Positions 1-56,917 of a stretch of 58,485 nt of DNA are shown piece by piece (positions within the stretch are counted from its first letter, which is position 1; each line of letters starts with the position of its first letter). The position numbers and the translations under genes were made by a program. This DNA is from Candidatus Woesearchaeota archaeon (lineage in GTDB: Archaea; Nanobdellota; Nanobdellia; Pacearchaeales; GW2011-AR1). The notes beneath the pieces are model-generated. The model ran no database searches and was not told where the DNA came from. It saw only the letters and a program-made list of their open reading frames with translations. The DNA lies in assembly GCA_964389765.1 (NCBI GenBank), contig CAYMES010000002.1, positions 1 to 58,485 of the forward strand. Reading direction: 5' to 3'.

Positions 1-153
1 CCACTACTGATAGCAAATATGATATTGCATCAAGACCAACAGAATTAAGTTCTGGCGGATATGTTGACATAACAGATTAAAGTTAATTTTTTATTTTTAT
101 TTTTATATTGTTCTTAATAGCTTTTGATTCTCCCCAAAAAAAGATTATTTCAT

Positions 154-176
154 CTTCTTTCTTAGGAAGAAAGAAG
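154..176. other. Perfect 10-bp stem / 3-nt loop hairpin at the outer edge of the cassette array
   Basis: cttctttctt-agg-aagaaagaag read directly. On the minus strand a T-run follows about 11 nt later, so it may terminate array transcription. Confidence 0.3.
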
Positions 177-186
177 CAAAGAAGGA

Positions 187-470
187 CGCGCACACCTCAA
201 ATTTAATGGGATGGCTAAAGGCCCACCTAAACTAAGAGAGATTTTAGAAATATCATAAAGGAGAATTAGAAACTCAAGCCACATTGCATTCTCGCCTACG
301 GCTCGGGTCGTTGAACAAGGCTTAAAGAGTTCGCTCGTTGCACTTAACTCTCCCAAATTAATTTCTCATCCAGCTCGTAAACTCGCGGGAGAAATTAACT
401 TTCCTTATCCCCAATGTTCAACTCAATAAAATTCTAATTGTTAGAAACGAGCGGGGGAGCCCCACCTCAC
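187..470 (-). repeat. Inter-cassette structured element E0 (attC-like, composite)
   Basis: GC-rich non-coding block sharing ordered motifs with E2-E4: gttgaacaRSgMttaaagag, GTTGCAC at 337-343, ctcccaaatt, a perfect 10-bp stem ttaatttctc/gagaaattaa, and aatgttcaactcaat. Its right end GAGCGGGGGAGCCCCAC (449-465) is the inverted partner of 1354-1371. Confidence 0.6.
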
Positions 471-485
471 GCTTCGCGTGAAAAG

Positions 486-1283
486 TCAAAGAATTCTAAA
501 CATCGGAAAATGAGCCCCTTCTTCAGTAGCTATAGCCTTTCTATGTTGTTCAATTCCATTACGTACACCTTGTTCAGCTCTTTGGTTTTTTCCTTCAACT
601 TCGGCAAGTCTTTTTTCCAAAGTTCTCATCTTAATCATTGCGTAAGGAATTTGAGTTGCTTCATAAATTTGTCTTTCTGGAATTCCTAAATAAGGTGTTT
701 CAAAACTCAAACTTAATTTATTTGTTCCAGGCAGAGATAATTTTGCAACTTCTTCTTCAATTCTATATGCAAAATCTGTTGCTTCTGTTGGTGTGTAATC
801 TACTTTTTTTGTTTGTGGAAATGTCCCTTCTCTATTATAACATCTTAAAGCAACTTCCCCATTTTCCTCATCTGTTAAAATATGTTCATCAAAATAATAA
901 CTTTTTCCCAACTCTCCAATCAATAAGGCTAATAAAAATGGATTAGATTCCATATCCTCATTTGTTAATCTGTTTGAAGGTCTGACAGCTCCCATATCTC
1001 TAAATGTTTTCCAACGAACTCTCGTGTAAATCCATTTTTCATCAAAACTAAATCTTTTATCTTTTTGTAAGGTTTCAAGAACACCTTCTAATTGTCCTCT
1101 ATCAAAAACCAAGAATTCTGTGCAATTATGCAAGTGATCTTCTCTTTGAAAACTTTCTCTTGCATATCCACTTTTTTCCAGACCATCATATAGGTCAGGC
1201 ATTGTAGCAATCTCAACAGAAGCAGTTCCATATCTACGAGTATTTGCCCAAATACTATCTAATTCTTGAATTCTTTGACTCAT
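486..1283 (-). CDS. Hypothetical protein (cassette ORF 1)
   Basis: 265-aa ORF with non-repetitive sequence, visibly higher G+C than the host background, and no motif I recognise. It is flanked by a 17-18 nt inverted repeat. Confidence 0.6.
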   Translation of the reverse strand: MSQRIQELDSIWANTRRYGTASVEIATMPDLYDGLEKSGYARESFQREDHLHNCTEFLVFDRGQLEGVLETLQKDKRFSFDEKWIYTRVRWKTFRDMGAVRPSNRLTNEDMESNPFLLALLIGELGKSYYFDEHILTDEENGEVALRCYNREGTFPQTKKVDYTPTEATDFAYRIEEEVAKLSLPGTNKLSLSFETPYLGIPERQIYEATQIPYAMIKMRTLEKRLAEVEGKNQRAEQGVRNGIEQHRKAIATEEGAHFPMFRIL

Positions 1284-1353
1284 ATAATTCTGTTATTTTA
1301 AACACTTTAAAAATCTTTCTATATATTACTACTAAATAATAACTATTAAAATA

Positions 1354-1474
1354 GTGGGGGCTCTCCCGCTCTAAAAAATAGTGCCTTCGGCATTATCTCT
1401 AATTAACAATTAAAATTTTACTCTTCGCCAGCCCTACACTTCGTTTCGGGACACATAACAAGGCTTAGTTTTAA
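1354..1474 (-). repeat. Inter-cassette structured element E1 (attC-like, short)
   Basis: GTGGGGGCTCTCCCGCTC at the left end, a tgcc-ttc-ggca hairpin (1382-1392), and ggcttagttttaat abutting the stop of the next ORF. Confidence 0.45.
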
Positions 1475-1789
1475 TTATTTTTTAGGTGCTAATTCTCTAA
1501 ATCCTTCTAAATTTCTAAAGAATGTATAGCGAACATGGTTAAATTCGGTTCGAGTTTCAAAAACACTTGCAAGAATCATGTTCCCATATGATAGATAATT
1601 GATTCTATCATCTGTTATCTGTGTAGAATTATATGCCAATTCACCTGATTTTATCTCAAATTCTGATTCTTTCACATTATATCTTTTTTGAATGAAAGCC
1701 CTTGTTTCAAGAAAAAAATCCTCAATAGTTTTTGAAACTCTGTGTTGTTCGCCAGTATTTACTATGAGGGGGTTTGGAATTAGATTCAT
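1475..1789 (-). CDS. Hypothetical protein (cassette ORF 2)
   Basis: 104-aa ORF between two structured elements. No recognisable motif. Confidence 0.45.
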   Translation of the reverse strand: MNLIPNPLIVNTGEQHRVSKTIEDFFLETRAFIQKRYNVKESEFEIKSGELAYNSTQITDDRINYLSYGNMILASVFETRTEFNHVRYTFFRNLEGFRELAPKK

Positions 1790-1841
1790 AATAGGATGAA
1801 AATTTCTCTAGTTTAAATAGTTGAATGTATTCACTTAAAAA

Positions 1842-2077
1842 ATAACTCTAAATTTTCCCTTCTGGGACGTTGCACTAAAATTCAATCCCTAACGGGAGAA
1901 TATAACAAGGATTTAGAGGAAAATTCCTGCTGAATTTTCCGAAATTTTTTCTTTCAGAAAAAACTCTCGAGCGTTCCGCAATTTTTCCAGCTCTGACTTC
2001 GTCGAGGGAAAAATTTCTTCACCTCAAGCCCTTCAGGTTGCTTAATCGCGATGTTAGTTTCAATCAGAGTTGGTGCC
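1842..2077 (-). repeat. Inter-cassette structured element E2 (attC-like)
   Basis: Contains GTTGCAC (1869-1875) in a ggga..tccc hairpin, a 9-bp stem aatttttcc/ggaaaaatt around AGCTC..TTCG, and gatgttagtttcaat. Its terminal cagagttggtgcc touches the stop codon at 2078. Confidence 0.6.
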
Positions 2078-2713
2078 TCAAAGTTCCAGCAGTTGTCTTA
2101 ACCCATACAAAGAATGAATTGTAAGAGAGGGATTTATATCAGGGAATTCATGTTCCCCTCTTACTAAAAGAACATCATACACTTGTGCATTTTTTGCAGT
2201 CGCCACATCTTCATCCGCATTTCCTACATAAATAGCTTTGCTTCTGTCCACTCCTAATATTTCTAAACATGATTCTAATCCATGCGGATGTGGTTTTGGT
2301 TTTATTCCATTTGAAGTTTGGGCAAGAATTACACTATCAAAATCTCCTTCGCCCAACATTCCAATTTCAAGAGACGCAATATGCATTGGTGCACCTGTAA
2401 CTATTCCTGTTTTATAGCTATTTTGTCTTAGTTCTTTTACAAAATCCACATCATCATACAATTTTGTGAATTGTCTTCTTAGTTCTGTTGTATCATGTTT
2501 TCTATATGTTTCCCAAAATTGTTTAGGATCTAAGCCAAAATGTTCTTGTATAATTGCATCTCTTCTAGCTTCAAACCAAAACCTATCAATATTACGATTA
2601 GAAGATGTGGCTCCTAAATCCTTTAATGTTTGCCCTAATATTTGATACCTATATTCAGGAGTAGTATGCACAAGTGTTCCATCCAAATCAAAGACAACTG
2701 CTTCATATATCAT
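2078..2713 (-). CDS. HAD-superfamily phosphatase (phosphoglycolate phosphatase-like), cassette ORF 3
   Basis: N-terminal VVFDLDGTLVHT (DxDGT motif I) and C-terminal YVGNADEDVATAK (motif IV), 211 aa. Confidence 0.8.
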   Translation of the reverse strand: MIYEAVVFDLDGTLVHTTPEYRYQILGQTLKDLGATSSNRNIDRFWFEARRDAIIQEHFGLDPKQFWETYRKHDTTELRRQFTKLYDDVDFVKELRQNSYKTGIVTGAPMHIASLEIGMLGEGDFDSVILAQTSNGIKPKPHPHGLESCLEILGVDRSKAIYVGNADEDVATAKNAQVYDVLLVRGEHEFPDINPSLTIHSLYGLRQLLEL

Positions 2714-2750
2714 AATAAAATAGAATTAATAGGACTTATAAAAAGATATC

Positions 2751-2964
2751 GGCACCAACTCTGACTTTGGATTTCCCTTTAGGGATTGTTGCACTAAAAA
2801 TCAATCCCTGCAAGTATTCGGGAGAGTTGAACAGCGATTAAAGAGCTCCGAAACCTTGCAGGTTTCTCCACCCAAATTTTTTCTTCAGCTCTGTTCCGCT
2901 TCGCTACACGAGGAGAACTCAACTTCTGTTAATGCAGATGTTAAACAGCATTTGAGTTGGGGCC
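2751..2964 (-). repeat. Inter-cassette structured element E3 (attC-like)
   Basis: Starts ggcaccaactctg, the perfect inverted copy of 2065-2077. GTTGCAC (2788-2794) sits in the loop of the agggattg/caatccct stem. It also carries the gttgaacagcgattaaagag block and ends gatgttaaacagcatttgagttggggcc. Confidence 0.65.
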
Positions 2965-2965
2965 T

Positions 2966-3585
2966 TTAGGCAGTTTTTCTCTGCAATTCCCTAACTGATA
3001 ATTTAGAAAGAACTTCTTCTAATCTTACTTCTTCAACATTTCTTAAATTATCCGAATTTCTTGAAAAATAATTTACAGGACAAACTGTATCTAAGTTTAG
3101 TTGAGGAACTAATGGCTCTAAAAACTCATAAAGATGTGGGTCGCTCCGATCAATAGCATATGCTACGGGAACATTTACATCTAATCCAAATCTTGTGCGA
3201 AGAGAACTCCTCTCCTAGCACCACTTCGATTTCCTCCTCTCTCGATTATTCGGTAAAGAACTTGTTGATCAATATCTTGTTCTGATAAATCTAATCTCGG
3301 AAATCCAAAATCTCTAGAGTTCTGAAACTGCTCCCATGTAAATGTTTTTTCTGCATCTGCCGTTCTTTGATTTTCATTTTCCATCCAATGACCATAATAA
3401 ACAGAAGGCCATCTCATCTCAGCATAAACTGCTTTAGATTCAATGAAATCTTTTAATTCTCTTGGAAAATGGAACTCTCCTATATCTGTGACAATATGGG
3501 CTTGTCTCAATGATCTATCATATTGTGCTATGAAAGTATCCACTTTATGATTTAAGTCATATTTTTGAAATTTTGAATTTACCAT
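2966..3585 (-). pseudogene. Hypothetical protein, apparently frameshifted (cassette ORF 4)
   Basis: The 134-aa ORF 3181-3585 stops at 3181. A second start-less frame is open from 3214 to 2966 (83 codons, protein-like, ..PVAYAIDRSDPHLYEFLEPLVPQLNLD..) and ends 1 nt from element E3, as in the other cassettes. Confidence 0.5.
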
Positions 3586-3641
3586 TGTTTATTCTTTAAA
3601 CTAGTTATTCTACTAAACTTTAAAAACTTATTGATTTCATA

Positions 3642-3797
3642 GACCTTAACTCAAACGCTTTGGATTTTCTACAAAAATTCTCGGGGAAGTTGCACTTCGC
3701 TCTCCCAAATTTTTTTCTCAGCTCTCACTCGCTACGTTCGTGGAGGAGAAAAAAACTTCCCTTAAGCCCGATGTTAGTTGCAATTTGAGATTTGGGC
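3642..3797 (-). repeat. Inter-cassette structured element E4 (attC-like)
   Basis: gaccttaactcaaacgc left end. 45 nt (3653-3697) are nearly identical to 5048-5092 and include GTTGCAC (3689-3695). It has a 10-bp stem tttttttctc/gagaaaaaaa and ends gatgttagttgcaatttgagatttgggc. Confidence 0.65.
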
Positions 3798-3853
3798 TAA
3801 AAGATAGTCAAAATCTTTGATTTTGAAAAAAATAATAAAAAAGAGGTTGGTAT

Positions 3854-4207
3854 CTAAAAATTAAGTGGTTCTTGAACACCTGATTCTCGTATCTTGTCAG
3901 TCAATTCTTTTCTGACACCTGAATCTTTAATTCTTCTTGCTTTTGTAAGACCAACAGATTGTTCAGTACCTGAAGCATGTAATGGCTCTAATAGTTCAAC
4001 CACATTAACAGTTCTGACTCTTGAACCAAAAGATGTATCATATTCATTTGTTTGAACAAGCACGTTCATACCTTTATATTGCATTACATCCTCTCTTAAA
4101 GTTACAATATGATTATCTCTTAAGGGTCCTTTTGTACAGCTCGCATGTAGATATTCCATTTTATTTACCTCCGTATATTTATTTCTAACAAAACCAAAGA
4201 TATACAA
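3854..4207 (-). CDS. Hypothetical protein (cassette ORF 5)
   Basis: 117-aa ORF between E4 and E5. No recognisable motif. Confidence 0.45.
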   Translation of the reverse strand: MYIFGFVRNKYTEVNKMEYLHASCTKGPLRDNHIVTLREDVMQYKGMNVLVQTNEYDTSFGSRVRTVNVVELLEPLHASGTEQSVGLTKARRIKDSGVRKELTDKIRESGVQEPLNF

Positions 4208-4208
4208 G

Positions 4209-4361
4209 TATTTAAATCTTTCGGTTTTTTACTACTATTAAGTTAATAAAAATAACTCCAGAATTCTGAACTAAAAATCCTTCGGATTTTGTTATGCTGC
4301 GATCTCCTCGTTTCACTCATAGGAGTGTATAATAAATGTTATGCTTAATCTAGATTTAGGC
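4209..4361 (-). repeat. Inter-cassette structured element E5 (attC-like, short)
   Basis: Perfect 7-bp hairpin aaaatcc-ttc-ggatttt (4274-4290). It ends aatgttatgcttaatctagatttaggc directly against the stop codon at 4362. Confidence 0.5.
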
Positions 4362-5000
4362 TCATTTGTATGGAATTATTAAAGAATCATTCATTCCATC
4401 AGATTTCCAAGATTGCGCAAAAACCTTTTTTGAAATCTTTTGATATGCTTTGTTTTTTGGATAAATATTGTGAAGATAAAAGTTCTTATCATCAAATCCA
4501 ACTACCACCACATAGTGTGGCCAAAGTTTATCTACATTACATGGGACAGCAATATTGAGATATAATAATACTGGCTTTTTTTGTCTAATATAATTTTCTA
4601 TATCTTTTAATGTTGGATTTTTTCTTATGAATTTATATCCAGAAAATTTTTCGCATTTCTTCTTGAATTTTTTTTCATATTTTTTTGCTCCAAATTTTCT
4701 TAGAAATTCTTTAAATCTTTTTGAATATTCTTTTTGTTCATAAGAAAAAGTATCATATTTATTTATGTAATCCACCTTAAATCCTTTTGATAGACAAAAA
4801 AAGACCAAACCTTCTGGAGAAGTTCCTCCTGAATTTTCTGCCTTCCCTTTTCTTTTTGGTGTATCTGCCCTGCCAACAATTTCTTCAACAGAACTTCTGT
4901 CTTTATAATATCTCAATATTGAAGCTAATGCTATTGGGCCACACCAACCATTACCCTTCCACTTTTTCAAATTTCTTACAAATGGAACCTTTATCTTCAT
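4362..5000 (-). CDS. Papain-fold cysteine peptidase, C39-like (cassette ORF 6)
   Basis: NGWCGPIALASILRYY (catalytic Cys context) and WPHYVVVVGFDDKNFYLHN (His context), typical of the Peptidase_C39_2 type. 212 aa. Confidence 0.55.
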   Translation of the reverse strand: MKIKVPFVRNLKKWKGNGWCGPIALASILRYYKDRSSVEEIVGRADTPKRKGKAENSGGTSPEGLVFFCLSKGFKVDYINKYDTFSYEQKEYSKRFKEFLRKFGAKKYEKKFKKKCEKFSGYKFIRKNPTLKDIENYIRQKKPVLLYLNIAVPCNVDKLWPHYVVVVGFDDKNFYLHNIYPKNKAYQKISKKVFAQSWKSDGMNDSLIIPYK

Positions 5001-5037
5001 TATGAATAAAAAAGAGGTTTTGTTTTATAATATTATC

Positions 5038-5150
5038 GTCTAAATCTAAACGCTTTGGATTCTCTACAAAAATTCTCGGGGAAGTTGCACTTTTCTCCTT
5101 CTAGTCTTAAGGATATTTAACAGGAGTTAATTTCAATTTAGAACAAGTCC
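5038..5150 (-). repeat. Inter-cassette structured element E6 (attC-like)
   Basis: gtctaaatctaaacgc left end (inverted partner of 4345-4361), 45 nt shared with E4 through GTTGCAC (5084-5090), then a different right half ending gttaatttcaatttagaacaagtcc. Confidence 0.55.
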
Positions 5151-5193
5151 TATCTTGTAGAATAGAACTTTGCCCAAAAGAAAAATACTGTAC

Positions 5194-5490
5194 TTATTGT
5201 TTTCCGAAGCTTAATTCTCTAGTTTGTTCTGTATATGCTTTTCCAGCTTTGTAATTATTTCCAATTCTTGATCTTCCATTCTTATCTTGATTTGGAAAGA
5301 AATGAGGATTATAAAATGGACTAACATGCTCATTGTCATAAAGAACACTTCCATCTTTTGTAAGAATAGATATGATTGCAACAGGTAATCCAAGAAATGG
5401 AAATCCTATTGTACTTTTAATAATTTTTCTTCCCTGAAAAATATCCCTCTCTTGTATCTCTTCAGGAACTCTTTCTAAATGAGTTACCAC
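5194..5490 (-). CDS. Hypothetical protein (cassette ORF 7, GTG start)
   Basis: 98-aa ORF with only a GTG start available. It is flanked by the direct repeat TTAGAACAAG (about 5137 and about 5497). Confidence 0.35.
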   Translation of the reverse strand: MVTHLERVPEEIQERDIFQGRKIIKSTIGFPFLGLPVAIISILTKDGSVLYDNEHVSPFYNPHFFPNQDKNGRSRIGNNYKAGKAYTEQTRELSFGKQ

Positions 5491-6017
5491 TAAATTAGAA
5501 CAAGGTGTTACCTTCTTTAATTTTACTCTGATTGATTTTTGTTAATTCATTTGATTAACATAAGTAATACTCACAAATTTTCCAAGATATTCTGGAAGTC
5601 TTTCCATTGCTTCAATTCTTTCAGCTTGATTCATCATTTTAATTACTTATAAGCCAAATATAAACTAATTTCTACAAATCTTTTTATTTATTACCACTTT
5701 AAAGTTACTTTCTTTAGAAAGATTTAAATATAGGAAAAAGATATTTTTTGTTATGTATATAGATAATTCTGCACAAGAAGATTATGAAAAAGCTCAAGTT
5801 TTTAGAATAAATGTAGCTTTAACTAGTTCAGCAGATGTAAGAGAAAATTGGTTAAAAGCAGCTACTAATTTAAAGCAAGCAGCTGATATAAATCAAAAAA
5901 CTAAATAGGAAAAGCAGAAGCTTAAAGAAGCTCTGCTTAAAGCAAGAGCAATTTTAAGTTATTTAAATTAGATAAATATTTCAAAAACTTTATAATCTAG
6001 CTTCTTATTTTATTTTT

Positions 6018-53209: not shown

Positions 53210-56200
53210 TTAAAATAATTTCTTTTGTCTGCTTCCTTGAACAATTTCTTCTATAATTTCTTCAACATTTACATTAAAAACTTTGAAGATATTTTCAACA
53301 GCAGGTTTTATTTGATTGTTTAAATAATAAGAGATATCATATCTACCTTTTTCATTTGGAAGTTTTACTCTTTCTCTTACTAATTGTTTTGTTTTGCTTT
53401 TTCCATTTTTTGTTTCTGCAACATAATATTCTATTAAATCTCCTTGTTCTGCTCCTATTCCTTGTTCTTCCATTTTTAAAGCAGCTATAACATGAGGACC
53501 TTTAGCTATATATTCAGAAAGAGGTTTTTTTAACTGTGTTTTAATAATTAATTGTTTTTTTTCTATATTTTTATTTTTTACTTTTTTAATAGTTTTTTTT
53601 AGATATTTAAGAGCAGATTTTTCATTTCCATTTTTTAAAATAAGTTCTAGAACTTTATTTTGTAATTCACGAGCAAGATTACACCAGTCTCTTCTTACTG
53701 TTTCAAATCCCCTTACTTTTAATTGTTTGTTATAATCAATTAAAGCATATTTTTTCTTTGCTCCTGTTGAAACAGTTCTTTTTGAAACAAATAATCCTCT
53801 TTTATAAAAATCTTCTAATTCAAGTTCCATTATTCCAGGCAACTTAGAGTTTAGTTTATTTAAAAATTCAAGAGTTTGTTTTTGAGTTTTGTTATTTAAG
53901 AGAAACGCGATTGAGTCTGTGTTATGAACTAAGACATAGTTAGCAAAGAATCTATGATTATCTCTAACCTCAATATCATAAATGTAATTAGGAGTTTTTA
54001 TTTTTTCAATATTTTTAACATTTTGTATATCAAATTCAAATTGATTTACTATACTTTTTTTCAAACTTTTTGAAGTTACTTGTGCTCTTTTATTTTTTCT
54101 TTCTAATAAAAATCCAATTTTTTCTGCAAATGCTTCTTTATTTTTTACTATTATATTTTTCGAATAACTATCAGAGCTATAAATTCTATCTTTAGTTTTA
54201 TAAGTGTTTTTAGTATTTTCTTTAAATACAGAATGAGAAATTCCTATCCGATATAGTAGTTTCCTAGCTTCTTTAATATAATCTTCTCTAACTGAGGTAT
54301 ATTTAATTATTGGAGCTCCTCCTCTTAACATCACACATCCATTAGCTGAAAATAATCCTCTAAGGAATGAAGCAATATTTTCTTCTTTTTCATAAAATAA
54401 CCATCTAGGAATAATCTTTTTTTTGCTTTTCCTACAGTTATTAAAAACCAAATTCACTAGTTTAAGCCCATTAACTACAATATCTCCTTTTTCTCTTTCC
54501 CATATATTTTTAATATAACCTTTTTTTTGTAAAGGAGTTATTAACTTGTTTTTTAATTCTTTAGTGTCTTTTCCTGCAGAAATCCTTAAATAATAATTCT
54601 TGCCATATTTATTAGGCATAAAACTTCCATCACCAATAAAATAACCTAAGAATTCATATATCTCTTTTGGATACTTTTTCTCTTTAGAATTTTCACAATT
54701 AATTTTTTTTAATGTGATTATACTATTTGCTTTTTCCTTTACCTCTCCAGGTTTTATTTCAATGAGCCTCTTAATTGGATTTTGTTTTTTTTCATTACTT
54801 TGATTGTGTTTTGTGGATTGATAACCAATTAAAGAGTGATCTTCAGTAACATCAATATACCAATGATTTGTGAACCAAACCCTATAAATTTTTTTATTGC
54901 ATTTATGCCTCATTACATAAACAATTGGTTTAAACACAGAATTTCCCTCCTTATCAATAGTTAGCACCTCAATATTCTTTTTAAAATTATATTCTTTTCC
55001 AAGTCCTGTTTTTTTATCTATCCTTTCAAAAATTTTTTCAATTTCTTCTTCATATACATTGCCTTTTTTTCTAATAAAGATTTTTGTTTTTCCATCAATA
55101 CTGTCAGAATATATAATTTCATAACCTTGTTTTTTTATATTTTCAATTGCATTTAGTATGTTTTCTTTTGCTAATTTAGCAGTAGATGCAGCTGCCTCTC
55201 TGCAATAATATCTTGCTCCAAAATATCCTTGATATCCATAAGCTGCATTTGCTAATAATTTATAAGCATTGCTTCTTGCTTTTGTTATTGGATTTTTATT
55301 TTTATTATATTGTCTTTTATATTGTTTTCTTAAATTAATTATTTCTTTTAACATTTTAGGAAAAAATCCTTGTTTTTTTGAGAAATAAACATTTCCTTCT
55401 TTGTCTAGATTTACTTTAATGATATCTTTATTTTTTAATGTAGATTTATTTTCTATTAGTGTGGAAAGAGATAAATTATATGATACAATAACAGAAGCAT
55501 ACATTGATGTGAAATCAAACATCCCAATATTTTCATATAATCCAGGCAAGGGTTGGAAGACAAATGCTCCTTCATATTTTCCTTTTGCTCTTCTTTTGCC
55601 TATTTCATCGTGAAGAGGACGTTTTTCTGCAATTTCATTATAAAGATGCAAGTTATGTAAGATATAATCTTCTACATGTGCTGACATGCTGTTTCTTGTA
55701 ATTCTGAAAATTGGTTCTTGGATAATATTGGTAAATTCTTGTATATCTGGCCATGTTTTTTTAAATAACAAGTAAGTTAGTTTTGAATCTTGTAAATTAT
55801 ATTTAAAGAAATCTTTCCAGTCATTTTTATCTAGATATTCTAATTTTGAAAAATCAAAATCATGTTTTTTCTCTCCCAATAATTCAGAAGCTATATCATT
55901 TAATCCAAGAGTCTCGCTCTGGAGGTATTGAGAATAAACTGATTCTATAAATCTATAAATGTCTATATGAATTATGCCAGTTATTTTTCCTTTACTTAAT
56001 CTTCCTTTTGAAAATATTGGTTGGCTGTTGTCTAAACCAATATCTAATTTAATGTTGTTATTTTCAGCTGCTGCTCTTAGATATGGTAAGTCAAATCCAT
56101 CTGAAAAATAACCAACTAAAAAATCTGGGTCATAGTCTTTTACATATTTTACAAATTGTTTTAACATTTGTCTTTCACTTGGAAAACTTTGTACAAAATC

Positions 56201-56917
56201 AGGGTTTTTTGAATCAGCAGATTTCCATGTTAAAACTTTTTTAAATTCCTTTTCTTTATTATGTTTATCAGAAGTTTTACCATATAAAGAAATCATTAGG
56301 ATGTCACCTTTTCCAATTTCAAATTTACTTGTTTCTATATCAAATGCAAGTATTTTTGGTTTGAATTTTAGATTTTTTTGTTCTTTTTGTTTTAGTTTTT
56401 TAAAAGAATTTAATTTATAGCAGTTTAGGTCAAGGCATTCAGATAAATAGCCAAAATCTTCACTATCTAACTTTTCAATGTTTACATTATGCCATTTTAA
56501 AGGCAAGATGTTTTTATCCATAATATATTTTGTAATTAGACGCATATCATATTCTCTTCTTGCATATATCTCAGAAAAATCAAGTTCATCTGCAACAGCA
56601 TGAGAATCTTTATAGTTTTCAACAAATATTTTAATGGCTTTATGTTTTTTTCCGAGAAAATTTTTATCATGAATTTCAGTTTTAAGAACTTTTGTTTTTC
56701 TTCCTGCTCTTTCAACCTGGATTTTTTCAATTTTTTGTTTTATTTTTTGAATTTTTTTATCACTTGTATTTTGTTTTAATATTGCCCAGAAATTTGGTTC
56801 ATAACTATCTATTATACAGATTTTTTCATTTTGAGAAGTTCTTCCAAATATCCTTATGTAGTTTTTACCTTTCCAGTCAAAATAATCATAATCAAGAGGT
56901 ATAAATTTGAGGTTCAT
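53210..56917 (-). CDS. polB: Family B DNA polymerase (intein-containing precursor)
   Basis: Exo I FDIET, motif A DFTSMYASVI, motif B KLLANAAYGY, and motif C YSD/TDS split by the intein. The extein is 841 aa. Confidence 0.93.
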   Translation of the reverse strand: MNLKFIPLDYDYFDWKGKNYIRIFGRTSQNEKICIIDSYEPNFWAILKQNTSDKKIQKIKQKIEKIQVERAGRKTKVLKTEIHDKNFLGKKHKAIKIFVENYKDSHAVADELDFSEIYARREYDMRLITKYIMDKNILPLKWHNVNIEKLDSEDFGYLSECLDLNCYKLNSFKKLKQKEQKNLKFKPKILAFDIETSKFEIGKGDILMISLYGKTSDKHNKEKEFKKVLTWKSADSKNPDFVQSFPSERQMLKQFVKYVKDYDPDFLVGYFSDGFDLPYLRAAAENNNIKLDIGLDNSQPIFSKGRLSKGKITGIIHIDIYRFIESVYSQYLQSETLGLNDIASELLGEKKHDFDFSKLEYLDKNDWKDFFKYNLQDSKLTYLLFKKTWPDIQEFTNIIQEPIFRITRNSMSAHVEDYILHNLHLYNEIAEKRPLHDEIGKRRAKGKYEGAFVFQPLPGLYENIGMFDFTSMYASVIVSYNLSLSTLIENKSTLKNKDIIKVNLDKEGNVYFSKKQGFFPKMLKEIINLRKQYKRQYNKNKNPITKARSNAYKLLANAAYGYQGYFGARYYCREAAASTAKLAKENILNAIENIKKQGYEIIYSDSIDGKTKIFIRKKGNVYEEEIEKIFERIDKKTGLGKEYNFKKNIEVLTIDKEGNSVFKPIVYVMRHKCNKKIYRVWFTNHWYIDVTEDHSLIGYQSTKHNQSNEKKQNPIKRLIEIKPGEVKEKANSIITLKKINCENSKEKKYPKEIYEFLGYFIGDGSFMPNKYGKNYYLRISAGKDTKELKNKLITPLQKKGYIKNIWEREKGDIVVNGLKLVNLVFNNCRKSKKKIIPRWLFYEKEENIASFLRGLFSANGCVMLRGGAPIIKYTSVREDYIKEARKLLYRIGISHSVFKENTKNTYKTKDRIYSSDSYSKNIIVKNKEAFAEKIGFLLERKNKRAQVTSKSLKKSIVNQFEFDIQNVKNIEKIKTPNYIYDIEVRDNHRFFANYVLVHNTDSIAFLLNNKTQKQTLEFLNKLNSKLPGIMELELEDFYKRGLFVSKRTVSTGAKKKYALIDYNKQLKVRGFETVRRDWCNLARELQNKVLELILKNGNEKSALKYLKKTIKKVKNKNIEKKQLIIKTQLKKPLSEYIAKGPHVIAALKMEEQGIGAEQGDLIEYYVAETKNGKSKTKQLVRERVKLPNEKGRYDISYYLNNQIKPAVENIFKVFNVNVEEIIEEIVQGSRQKKLF
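53921..55102 (-). mobile_element. 394-aa intein with LAGLIDADG homing-endonuclease domain in PolB motif C
   Basis: Starts SIDGKTKIF after ..IIYSD, has block B VTEDHSL, LAGLIDADG motifs LGYFIGDGSF and FLRGLFSANGCV, and ends YVLVHN followed by TDSIAF. Confidence 0.88.

Follow-up and report, generated by a model that had tools for sequence, protein, structure and literature searches.

Cassettes of class 1 integrons, which carry the 59-base element or attC, are cut between the G and the TT of the R' box, and their first integrated bases complement the inverse core (R'') of their own attC. The spacer in the R and L boxes of these sites is asymmetric, and the bottom strand is the one preferred for folding. 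The complementarity that brackets the ORF does not extend beyond the 7-9 nt of the core sites, and the cassettes are promoterless. The sedentary chromosomal integrons of Vibrio cholerae carry long homogeneous attC, the Vibrio cholerae repeats, and sites of this type are found in a single lineage. In Archaea, integrons and CALINs have been described as short ORFs in tandem, with attC sites between them that fold in single-stranded form (Ghaly et al. 2022, Sci Adv, PMC9668308). The CALINs in Nanoarchaeota (DPANN) mostly lack an adjacent integrase, the attC types cross domains, and IntIs are defined by an IntI-specific additional domain. The term inverted repeat does not occur in the main text of that paper, and no description of cassette-specific outer repeats was found there.

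The DNA analysed here, a stretch of 58,485 nt that we call the window, carries at 110-5097 (+) an integrase-less cassette array of integron type (a CALIN), partly decayed, from an AT-rich DPANN-like archaeon. It was delimited by core HMM matches and manual mapping, and it fits this picture of archaeal CALINs. There are seven cassettes, and the top strand of attC is the + strand. No tyrosine-recombinase motif was found among window ORFs of at least 150 aa, no Pfam integrase among the 20 window ORFs scanned, and no recombinase gene on the contig that carries the array. The inter-ORF elements belong to an attC family whose 21-nt core motif was found in 37 other genomes (Woese-, Pace- and Nanoarchaeota and CPR bacteria), and same-orientation arrays hold 82 elements of it by core HMM. 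On the + strand the family reads rcX, 5' extension, R'', L'', variable hairpin, L', R' (G/TTRRRYNN, the slash marking the cut), AAT and X, where X and rcX are the two arms that bracket the ORF. RNAalifold recovers an R stem and an L stem with compensatory changes at 10/15 pairs. Three things set these arrays apart from the CALINs of that paper: private arms of 12-16 nt that are often nested, a 60-75 nt 5' extension of attC carrying small TGC hairpins ("GTTGCAC"), and recombinases beside related arrays that lack the IntI-specific domain.

Those recombinases are XerA-like. Their alignment with Pyrococcus abyssi XerA (PDB 4a8e, 168 bits) runs from end to end, and against the NCBIfam XerA_Arch cut-off of 220 bits the one at locus L046 passes with 234.5 while those at L035 (206) and L018 (184) fall just below. 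Unlike XerA or XerCD at dif they are divergent, lie roughly 60-130 nt from the first G/TT junction, and are placed like intI beside attI rather than beside a dif site. No array accompanies most of their relatives in metagenomes (27-45% identity). Like class 1 cassettes, the related arrays have the G/TT cut, complementarity between R' and the cassette's own R'', and the asymmetric R/L spacer, and here too folding predictions favour the bottom strand over the top. Unlike class 1 cassettes, they have a second and often a third perfect repeat further out, apparent promoters of their own (judged by eye), and ORFs that are 28% antisense to attC elsewhere in the family (28 same-strand, 11 opposite) and all antisense in the window. 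The attC are long (over 100 nt) and highly similar along an array, as in Vibrio cholerae, and toxin-antitoxin genes occur among the cassettes there as here, a PIN/RHH pair adjoining the HAD gene in locus L130. Unlike VCR-type sites, this attC type is near-identical between MAGs assigned to archaea and MAGs assigned to CPR bacteria, though some of these assignments may be binning errors.

The attC core E0 (308-424, +; nhmmer E = 1e-23) is intact, with R'' TCGTTGAAC at 308-316, L'' at 317-329, a side hairpin GTTGCAC at 337-343 followed by the variable hairpin, L' at 402-412 and R' GTTCAACTC at 416-424. Its 5' extension (272-307, starting ACTCAAGCC) holds the TGC mini-hairpin variant ATTGCAT at 283-289. 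E1 (1451-1475) is collapsed to R'' ACACATAAC, 8 nt and then GTTTTAAT, the hairpin body being deleted; the same collapse is seen in E5 and beside the HAD gene in L130. E2 (1845-2061) has its extension at 1845-1897 with GTTGCAC at 1869-1875, R'' GAATATAAC at 1898-1906, L'' at 1907-1919 and R' GTTAGTTTC at 2053-2061. E3 (2764-2948; nhmmer E = 6e-8) has its extension at 2764-2823 with GTTGCAC at 2788-2794, R'' GAGTTGAAC at 2824-2832, L'' at 2833-2845, a side hairpin AACCTTGCAGGTT at 2852-2864, L' at 2926-2936 and R' GTTAAACAG at 2940-2948. E4 (3655-3781) is without R'' and L'': its extension (3655-3688) is fused at GTTGCAC 3689-3695 to a right half with the variable hairpin, L' at 3759-3769 and R' GTTAGTTGC at 3773-3781, which looks like a deletion between two GTTGCAC copies. 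E5 (4270-4346) keeps an extension with the hairpin AAAATCC-TTCG-GGATTTT, a TGC motif GCTGCGA at 4296-4302, an R''-like GTGTATAAT at 4325-4333 and R' GTTATGCTT at 4338-4346; this extension is comparable with that of L018. The truncated E6 (5050-5097), an extension with GTTGCAC at 5084-5090, is the distal end of the array, and GTTCTTAAT at 110-118 is tentatively the array-proximal junction. All of these elements are on the + strand.

Between them, on the - strand, lie ORFs at 486-1283 (265 aa, no Pfam family; homologues at 50% identity or less occur in other DPANN archaea, in ordinary chromosomal surroundings), 1475-1789 (104 aa), 2078-2713 (a HAD-family hydrolase of 211 aa; Pfam HAD_2, E = 9e-23), 2966-3585, 3854-4159/4207 and 4362-5000 (a C39-like peptidase). 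The ORF at 2966-3585 is frameshifted and not a single open frame; the frame at 3181-3585 gives 134 aa.

The original prediction was that four of these ORFs are bracketed by matching inverted repeats, and direct comparison finds all four pairs where it placed them. The HAD gene has a perfect one, CAGAGTTGGTGCC at 2065-2077 against GGCACCAACTCTG at 2751-2763 (13/13), after which the 5' extension begins with ACTTTGGATTTCCC. The pair 2948-2964/3642-3658 matches at 13/17, with X at 2952-2964 and rcX at 3642-3654 (10/13), and 4345-4361/5038-5052 at 11/15 with 9 contiguous matches, X being 4350-4361 and rcX 5038-5049 (10/12). The GC-rich pair of ORF 486-1283, 449-465/1354-1371, matches at 16/17 aligned bases plus one 1-nt gap, and it is a nested inner pair (X2). 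An outer pair that had gone unnoticed consists of AAAATTCTAATTG at 428-440, directly 3' of R'-AAT, and CAATTAAAATTTT at 1407-1419 (12/13), which runs into the start of the attC 5' extension, ACTCTTCGCC. The arms first noticed are thus X/rcX or the nested second pair. Three more pairs were found: 1476-1488/1832-1844 (12/13) for ORF 1475-1789, 3813-3835/4179-4201 (about 20/23) as the inner pair of ORF 3854-4159, and 122-133/260-271 (10/12) for an ORF-less cassette, where the spacing is atypical and the assignment tentative. The expected outer pair of ORF 3854 is absent, TTGAGATTTGGGC at 3785-3797 not being complementary to CTCCAGAATTCTGA at 4256-4269. When left and right ORF flanks are compared all against all, the own pair scores highest in 5/6 rows.

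The same holds across the family, well beyond what chance would give. In 36 cassettes from other genomes, the two ends of one cassette share perfect inverted matches whose maximum length has a median of 12.5 nt and reaches at least 11 nt in 25 of the 36; for the two flanks of one element, and for random pairs, the median is 6 nt (Mann-Whitney p = 3e-10). Nesting, with a second arm of 10 nt or more, is present in 16/26 family cassettes and in 3.7% of controls, and around one family cassette in four has no detectable X pair. Arms of different cassettes across the family bear no relation to one another. The HAD cassette has been found in four other contexts, in which it retains X, AAT, the R' remainder and rcX; HAD homologues with these arms on either side (82-91% protein identity) lie in L127/L128, L129 and L130-L137. 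The bracketing repeats are therefore cassette-specific and move with the ORF, as had been proposed. We believe that they are in all likelihood an extra cassette-specific clamp stem inside ordinary integron-type cassettes and are not evidence of a new exchange geometry.

It could be argued that the arms are left over from cassette formation, with no role in later recombination: the gene carried them before capture, or capture copied a short terminal segment inverted beside attC. The arms are indeed unique to each cassette, usually perfect, and set at fixed spacing (AAT or ACT) to conserved parts of attC. The HAD gene in L130-L137 retains both although its attC is a collapsed remnant, and an earlier capture could have left the nested second pair. 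But complementarity stays perfect among HAD copies of 82-93% protein identity whose arms have diverged. Where the window has GGTGCC/GGCACC the others have GGCGCC/GGCGCC, a compensatory double change that speaks for selection on pairing. No intermediate of capture turned up, and we consider this explanation unlikely.

A role in RNA, by 5'-3' pairing of the cassette transcript or as terminator or insulator stems, seems quite improbable. The arms do bracket complete transcription units, and AT-rich TATA-like boxes can be read close to them. Yet in the window such boxes lie between arm and start codon, as does TTTTTATAA some 30 nt before the ATG at 2713, so the promoter-side arm is probably untranscribed. 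Arm position is fixed relative to the attC boxes and not to the ORF ends, and it is independent of ORF orientation.

The most important disagreement with the original prediction concerns where exchange takes place. It placed the exchange point inside the inter-ORF spacer, which stands, and at GTTGCAC, which does not; nor is it the middle of the element. The comparisons place crossover at the canonical G/TT of R', after G416 in E0 and after G2053 in E2. The R' boxes starting at 416, 2053, 2940, 3773 and 4338 each lie 12 nt to the left of the left arms that had been noticed, so under a classical cut both arms fall inside one cassette, move with it, and are unrelated to the arms of its neighbour. 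Window positions 133-418 are 88-92% identical to two other genomes and identity stops exactly at the GTT at 416-418; homology to L024 and L028 stops at 418. Homology of the HAD cassette to its copies elsewhere likewise stops at the GTT of R'. The right half of E4's attC elsewhere precedes seven different cassettes, which diverge directly past GATGTTA. In related arrays the 8 bases 3' of the R' G pair perfectly or nearly so with the R'' of the element that follows, scoring at least 8/9 in 20/27 cases; for the R'' of the same element the figure is 5/57. The recombinase-proximal first cassette begins at G/TT in five loci, and those of L046, L052 and L115 match their own R'' at 9/9. In the window a cassette's R' remainder lacks complementarity to the R'' of the attC that belongs to it (3-6 of 9), the R'' of E3 matching the R' of E0 instead. 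The cut site therefore cannot be proved from the window by itself, and the assignment rests on the related loci and on the homology breakpoints at 418 and 2054-2056.

That failure of complementarity would suit an exchange at GTTGCAC, with a mobile unit of right half-element, ORF and left half-element, and so would several other observations. E6 (5048-5097) and E4 (3653-3702) are 94% identical through GTTGCACTT, past which E6 continues into unrelated sequence. A 5' extension is fused to the right half of attC at GTTGCAC in E4, L012 and L037, and the motif resembles GTTRRRY. We nevertheless find this geometry very improbable. The R'' and the preceding cassette start co-vary in related arrays, which would be impossible if the two were split at GTTGCAC, and with the breakpoints at the GTT of R' this largely refutes it. 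Nor does it agree with one attC right half, from GTTGCAC to GATGTTA, being linked to many downstream cassettes. The motif itself varies as a hairpin does, through compensatory changes (GCTGCGC, CCTTGCAGG, ATTGCAT, TTTTTTCTTGCAGAAAAAA). An NN-TGC-N'N' palindrome lies 22-35 nt upstream of R'' in 51/61 elements against 7% of shuffles, and each element has two TGC hairpins, one in the 5' extension and one within attC proper. GTTGCAC is the apex of a covarying structural side hairpin and only secondarily a deletion junction. Since the junctions in E4, E6, L012 and L037 fall exactly on it, some recombination or deletion does occur there, and such deletions inactivated E4 and E6. A departure from textbook geometry is not supported. 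The premise that only 6 nt of R' travel with a cassette is a misreading, as all sequence 3' of the G/TT cut travels. The classical-cut evidence makes the mobile unit about 25 nt (TTRRRYNN-AAT-X), the ORF, and rcX with nearly the whole attC, rather than two half-elements.

That the arms are one consensus, or the spacers MITE-like insertions with terminal repeats of their own, is hardly credible: several window arms are alike (TTGAGTTGGGGCC, CAGAGTTGGTGCC, TTGAGATTTGGGC) and those either side of E3 match at 10/11, but family arms are unrelated, the flanks of one element match only as well as random pairs do, and the HAD gene keeps its arms from context to context, which refutes this reading. The partial agreement of the E3 ends (ggcNccaactc) is real and arises because the arms of two neighbouring cassettes, CAGAGTTGGTGCC and TTGAGTTGGGGCC, happen to be similar.

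We consider it highly likely that a partly decayed chromosomal array of integron type, with a classical G/TT cut and private arms acting as a clamp, accounts for the locus. On the + strand a cassette starts with TTRRRYNN, the R' remainder, then AAT and a private arm X of 12-16 nt. Often a second private arm X2 follows, and then a self-contained gene, which may lie in either orientation and seems by eye to have a TATA-like promoter of its own. It ends with rcX2, rcX, the 60-75 nt extension with its TGC-apex hairpins, and attC proper in the order R'', L'', second TGC hairpin, variable hairpin, L' and G. Folding is predicted to be about 10 kcal/mol more favourable for reconstituted circular junctions of 27 cassettes than for the array form, and X/rcX forms the basal stem of the three-way junction that is their MFE structure. 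In a circle or single strand X would pair with rcX and TTRRRYNN with the cassette's own R'', closing a long basal stem under the attC hairpin to give that junction. In the array X/rcX pairing would loop out the ORF and draw the two flanking attC sites close to each other. Judged by these pairing energetics, the arms may serve as a clamp specific to each cassette, helping the correct two sites to fold or synapse.

The original prediction was that four ORFs in the array at 110-5097 are bracketed by matching inverted repeats. This observation is confirmed, and it is general across the family of related arrays. The coordinates of the four pairs are right. One pair is perfect (13/13), one matches at 16/17 apart from a 1-nt gap, one has a run of 9 contiguous matches in 15, and the last reaches 13/17. 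Chance matches dominate the output of a default repeat finder in AT-rich DNA, so targeted scripts were used instead. When the 70 nt left of each ORF in the array were compared all-against-all with the 110 nt right of each, an ORF's own pair scored highest in 5 of the 6 rows, and an additional pair was revealed around ORF 3854. The layout across the family is an attC site ending in its R' box, then two variable bases, a conserved AAT, and an arm, X, of 12-16 nt. At its opposite end the same cassette carries the exact reverse complement of this arm, rcX, directly 5' of a conserved ACTCTYC with which the following attC begins its 5' extension of 60-75 nt. Across 36 cassettes from other genomes, the longest perfect inverted match joining the positions of X and rcX has a median of 12.5 nt and reaches 11 nt or more in 25 of them. 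For the two flanks of one element the median is 6 nt, the same as for random pairs (p = 3e-10 against the own-cassette match). A nested inner pair, X2, that is perfect over at least 10 nt is found in 16 of 26 cassettes versus 3.7% of controls.

In the window, where we name cassettes by the start of their ORF, the outer arms lie at 122-133 and 260-271 in cassette 0, which has no ORF (match 10/12), at 428-440 and 1407-1419 in c486 (12/13), at 1476-1488 and 1832-1844 in c1475 (12/13), at 2065-2077 and 2751-2763 in c2078 (13/13), at 2952-2964 and 3642-3654 in c2966 (10/13), and at 4350-4361 and 5038-5049 in c4362 (10/12). The GC-rich pair at 449-465 and 1354-1371, one of the original four, is of the inner X2 type, as is a pair at 3813-3835 and 4179-4201. 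Between arm and start codon, on the minus strand upstream of the ATGs, there are AT-rich TATA-like boxes, TTTTTATAA, ATTTTTAAA, ATATTATAAAA and AGTTTTTAAAG, at 2714-2750, 1284-1353, 5001-5037 and 3586-3641, about 25-35 nt from the start codons. Boxes like TTTATATA stand between X and X2 in same-strand cassettes elsewhere. The sequence and placement of these boxes suggest that each cassette may carry its own archaeal promoter.

The spacer elements are attC sites, which makes these integron-type cassette arrays. A 21-nt motif, GTTGCACTTNNCTCTCCCAAATT, common to two of the window elements (E0 and E4 in the series E0-E6), is present in 37 other genomes, mostly Woese-, Pace- and Nanoarchaeota and CPR bacteria. 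The aligned copies read in plus-strand order R'' (RYYYAAC), L'' (for example AGGGCTTAAAGGG), TTCGCTC-GTTGCAC-TTCGCTCTCCC, a variable hairpin, L' (CCCTTAAGCCC), GAT and R' (GTTRRRY). The ends of the HMM consensus, GTTTAAC and GTTATAT, are the inverse core R'' (RYYYAAC) and the core R' (GTTRRRY), and the boxes in the window were verified. RNAalifold recovers the R stem and the L stem from 28 distinct cores with 15 pairs, 10 of which have changes on both sides. In the consensus L'' has one extra A (GGGCTTAA[A]GGG versus CCCTTAAGCCC), three bases bulge out between L' and R', and the R''/L'' arm bears a large side hairpin; these are only candidates for the role that the canonical extrahelical G/T plays in marking the recombined strand. 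The core HMM gives 82 elements in same-orientation arrays at 0.3-3 kb spacing, with an ORF on the element strand in 28 of 39 cassettes; in AT-rich sequence a regular-expression cassette finder gives too much noise to be relied on by itself. The Rfam 15 covariance models return nothing at E <=1 from window 1-6000. One could instead take the ORF strand as the top strand of attC, with GTTGAAC/GTTCAAC or the arms themselves as R boxes, and this is ruled out by the family consensus, the ORF-orientation statistics and the side on which the recombinase lies.

Seven attC sites fall within 5 kb in the window. The array at 110-5097 has at least two clustered attC sites and no integron integrase nearby, which is what makes an array a CALIN. 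Arrays of the integron type have already been reported in DPANN archaea, mostly as integrase-less CALINs (PMC9668308). What the window contains is an archaeal integron-type cassette array, a kind of object already known, whose variant features are apparently undescribed. The same attC type also occurs in genomes assembled from metagenomes and labelled Gammaproteobacteria, Bdellovibrio and Omnitrophota (L010-L046, where L numbers denote related loci in other genomes). A stretch of 1,860 nt is identical between L015 (6141-8000) and L027 (1-1860), whose assembled genomes are labelled Peribacteria and Methanosarcinales. Either cassettes have spread between domains or there are binning errors.

The original prediction went on to argue for an exchange point inside the spacer, with a mobile unit made of a right half-element, an ORF and a left half-element. 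We reject this geometry. Five independent lines place the crossover at the canonical G|TT of R', which in the window means cuts after G416, G2053, G2940, G3773 and G4338, each cut lying 12 nt to the left of the corresponding left arm. In related arrays the GTTRRRYNN of one element complements the NNRYYYAAC of the next at 8 or more of 9 positions in 20 of 27 pairs, 13 of them perfectly; the R'' of the same element reaches this level in 5 of 57 cases and random pairs in 7%. The next element in that pairing is the cassette's own attC, and a cassette start that complements its own R'' is classically the mark of a cut inside R'. Two Woesearchaeota contigs match window 133-418 at 88-92% identity; the identity ends at GTT 416-418, and past that point the three sequences read TTCAACTC, TTATATGA and TTATGTCT. 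From GTTGCAC to GATGTTA, the right half of E4 recurs almost unchanged in seven other genomes, where seven different cassettes follow it. In arrays adjacent to a recombinase gene the first cassette begins at G|TT, about 60-130 nt from the recombinase start codon and on the other strand, and the cassette's own R'' matches at 9/9 in L046, L052 and L115.

The fifth line is the same ORF in other contexts, the comparison called for at the outset, which exists for the HAD cassette, c2078. Its homologues, at 82-91% protein identity, occur in four other contexts (L127/L128, L129, L130-L137), and both arms are kept in all of them. In the relatives GGTGCC/GGCACC in the arm has become GGCGCC/GGCGCC, two changes that compensate each other. 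Towards X the homology takes in the arm, AAT and the variable bases of R' and ends at GTT. On the other side it extends into the 5' extension of attC where attC persists.

GTTGCAC itself, of which there are five copies on the plus strand of the array, had been the proposed exchange point, and this is not borne out. Across the family it forms the tip of a small hairpin, NN-TGC-N'N', a palindrome found 22-35 nt upstream of R'' in 51 of 61 elements versus 7% of shuffled windows. Its forms covary (GCTGCGC, CCTTGCAGG, ATTGCAT, TTTTTTCTTGCAGAAAAAA). A second copy lies between L'' and CCCAAATT, and there are long-stem variants such as AAAATCC-TTGCA-GGATTTT. This covarying pattern makes GTTGCAC a structural part of the site and not the crossover, with the cut at G|TT instead. 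At E4 the 5' extension is fused straight to the right half of attC at GTTGCAC, without R''/L''; the same is true in L012 and L037, and the truncated last site, E6, is also joined at GTTGCAC. We read these junctions as deletions between, or at, two direct GTTGCAC copies, which may have arisen by slippage or by recombinase action on a secondary site containing GTT.

No tyrosine recombinase was detected on the contig, that is, in the whole 58,485-nt record, and the window has no attI beside a recombinase gene. Related arrays do have divergent XerA-like tyrosine recombinase genes of about 255-275 aa, some 60-130 nt from the first G|TT junction (L046, oriented 2945-3830; L035, L018, L052, L053, L115, L047, L049, L059). 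A first cassette at G|TT by the recombinase gene, the position of an attI, is found in L046, L035, L053, L052 and L115. A hairpin, GTATTAAGCG..CGCTTAATAC, stands just before GTT in L047, L049, L052, L053 and L059 and is probably that of an attI. Along their whole length the recombinases align with archaeal XerA (4a8e). Their match to the integron-integrase model TIGR02249 is in two pieces only, skipping profile positions 204-236, and they lack the additional domain specific to IntI, with 28 residues there versus 70 in VchIntIA (2a3v). An adjacent intI with that domain, as in a complete integron, is thus found neither in the window nor in the related loci. Three of the array recombinases group with two further metagenomic genes that have GTT-N6-AAT upstream on their contigs, one of which ends just beyond it. 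In the metagenome scan 77 of 80 recombinase relatives have no attC-model match. An incomplete literature search found no published description of XerA-type integrons.

The window array is a decaying CALIN. Only E0, E2 and E3 are complete attC sites. E1 and E5 have collapsed to R'', a few nucleotides and R', E4 lacks its left half, and E6 is truncated. One cassette has lost its outer arm pair. The gene at 2966-3585 is not one ORF; a frameshift near 3181-3230 separates a 134-aa frame from a shifted continuation, and it is probably a pseudogene. Complementarity between own R' and R'' in the window cassettes is at random level (3-6 of 9), which is consistent with decay. Collapsed remnants with R'' and R' only 4-13 nt apart (window 1451-1475 and 4325-4346; L130 just downstream of the HAD stop, gene 3001-3654) recur in independent contexts, as if the hairpin body had been excised, and they may mark immobilised cassettes.

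Among the array ORFs are a HAD hydrolase and a C39-like peptidase; the others encode proteins with no Pfam family. All are on the minus strand and so antisense to attC, versus 28% of ORFs elsewhere. In L127 the HAD ORF is likewise antisense, which makes orientation a property of the cassette. Exact look-up of the window proteins found no record, and the homologues of ORF 486-1283, at no more than 50% identity, lie in ordinary chromosomal contexts that are uninformative about flanks. In L130-L137 (560-1360) PIN_2 and RHH toxin-antitoxin genes adjoin the HAD copy in a conserved Nanoarchaeia locus with attC remnants only, reminiscent of the toxin-antitoxin cassettes that stabilise large bacterial integron arrays. 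Upstream of E0, at window 133-300, lies a non-coding stretch of some 160 nt that two Woesearchaeota contigs (L024, L028) share at 88-92% identity. It contains a hairpin at 147-172 in which the copies differ by compensatory changes. Possible readings are a small RNA, a terminator and the cargo of the ORF-less cassette. The window is the entire public contig, and outside the array it is archaeal (CDC48, family B polymerase, SerRS) at 25-28% GC. The polymerase ORF (53210-56917, 1,235 aa) matches polymerase models in two separated stretches with a helicase-intein-like match between them, at residues about 745-958, which suggests an intein.

When a cassette's own start is joined to its own attC, mimicking the circle, the predicted folding energy is about 10 kcal/mol lower than that of the array form (27 cassettes), and the predicted fold is a three-way junction of an X/rcX basal stem, the R/L stem of attC and the hairpins of the 5' extension. 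In a single-stranded array this pairing would leave the ORF looped out and bring the attC sites on either side of it together. The arms would then be a cassette-specific clamp, an aid to the folding or meeting of the right sites, and on these models we believe this is probably their role. They may instead be a footprint of cassette formation, and this is the most viable alternative to the clamp. A role in RNA is less likely. Pairing between the arms of neighbouring cassettes appears in minimum-free-energy folds of array-form elements and is a by-product of the similar arms in the window, absent family-wide. A MITE or small non-autonomous transposon is rejected, as the flanks of single elements match at random level and the repeats pair across the ORF.

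Incomplete searches found no description of outer cassette repeats in the literature. We put forward tentatively, with somewhat less than even confidence, that DPANN and CPR share a distinct integron lineage, marked by a short XerA-type recombinase without the IntI-specific domain, an attC 5' extension with TGC hairpins, and private, selection-maintained clamp repeats X and X2 that complete a long stem only when the cassette is excised or looped out. If confirmed, XerA-like recombinases without the domain regarded as the mark of integron integrases bear on the evolution of those integrases out of Xer-like enzymes. They also bear on the large number of archaeal and CPR arrays that score as integrase-less. 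R'-AAT-X ... rcX-ACT is also a simple signature for delimiting cassettes. Within this widespread attC family each cassette has one or two private perfect inverted repeats immediately beyond its attC boxes, and double changes have preserved their complementarity. Their long-range pairing is predicted to act in cassette folding, excision or integration, in organisms whose routes of single-stranded DNA entry are unclear. If the clamp is real, it would be a new layer of control over site pairing and possibly a trace of how cassettes are constructed.
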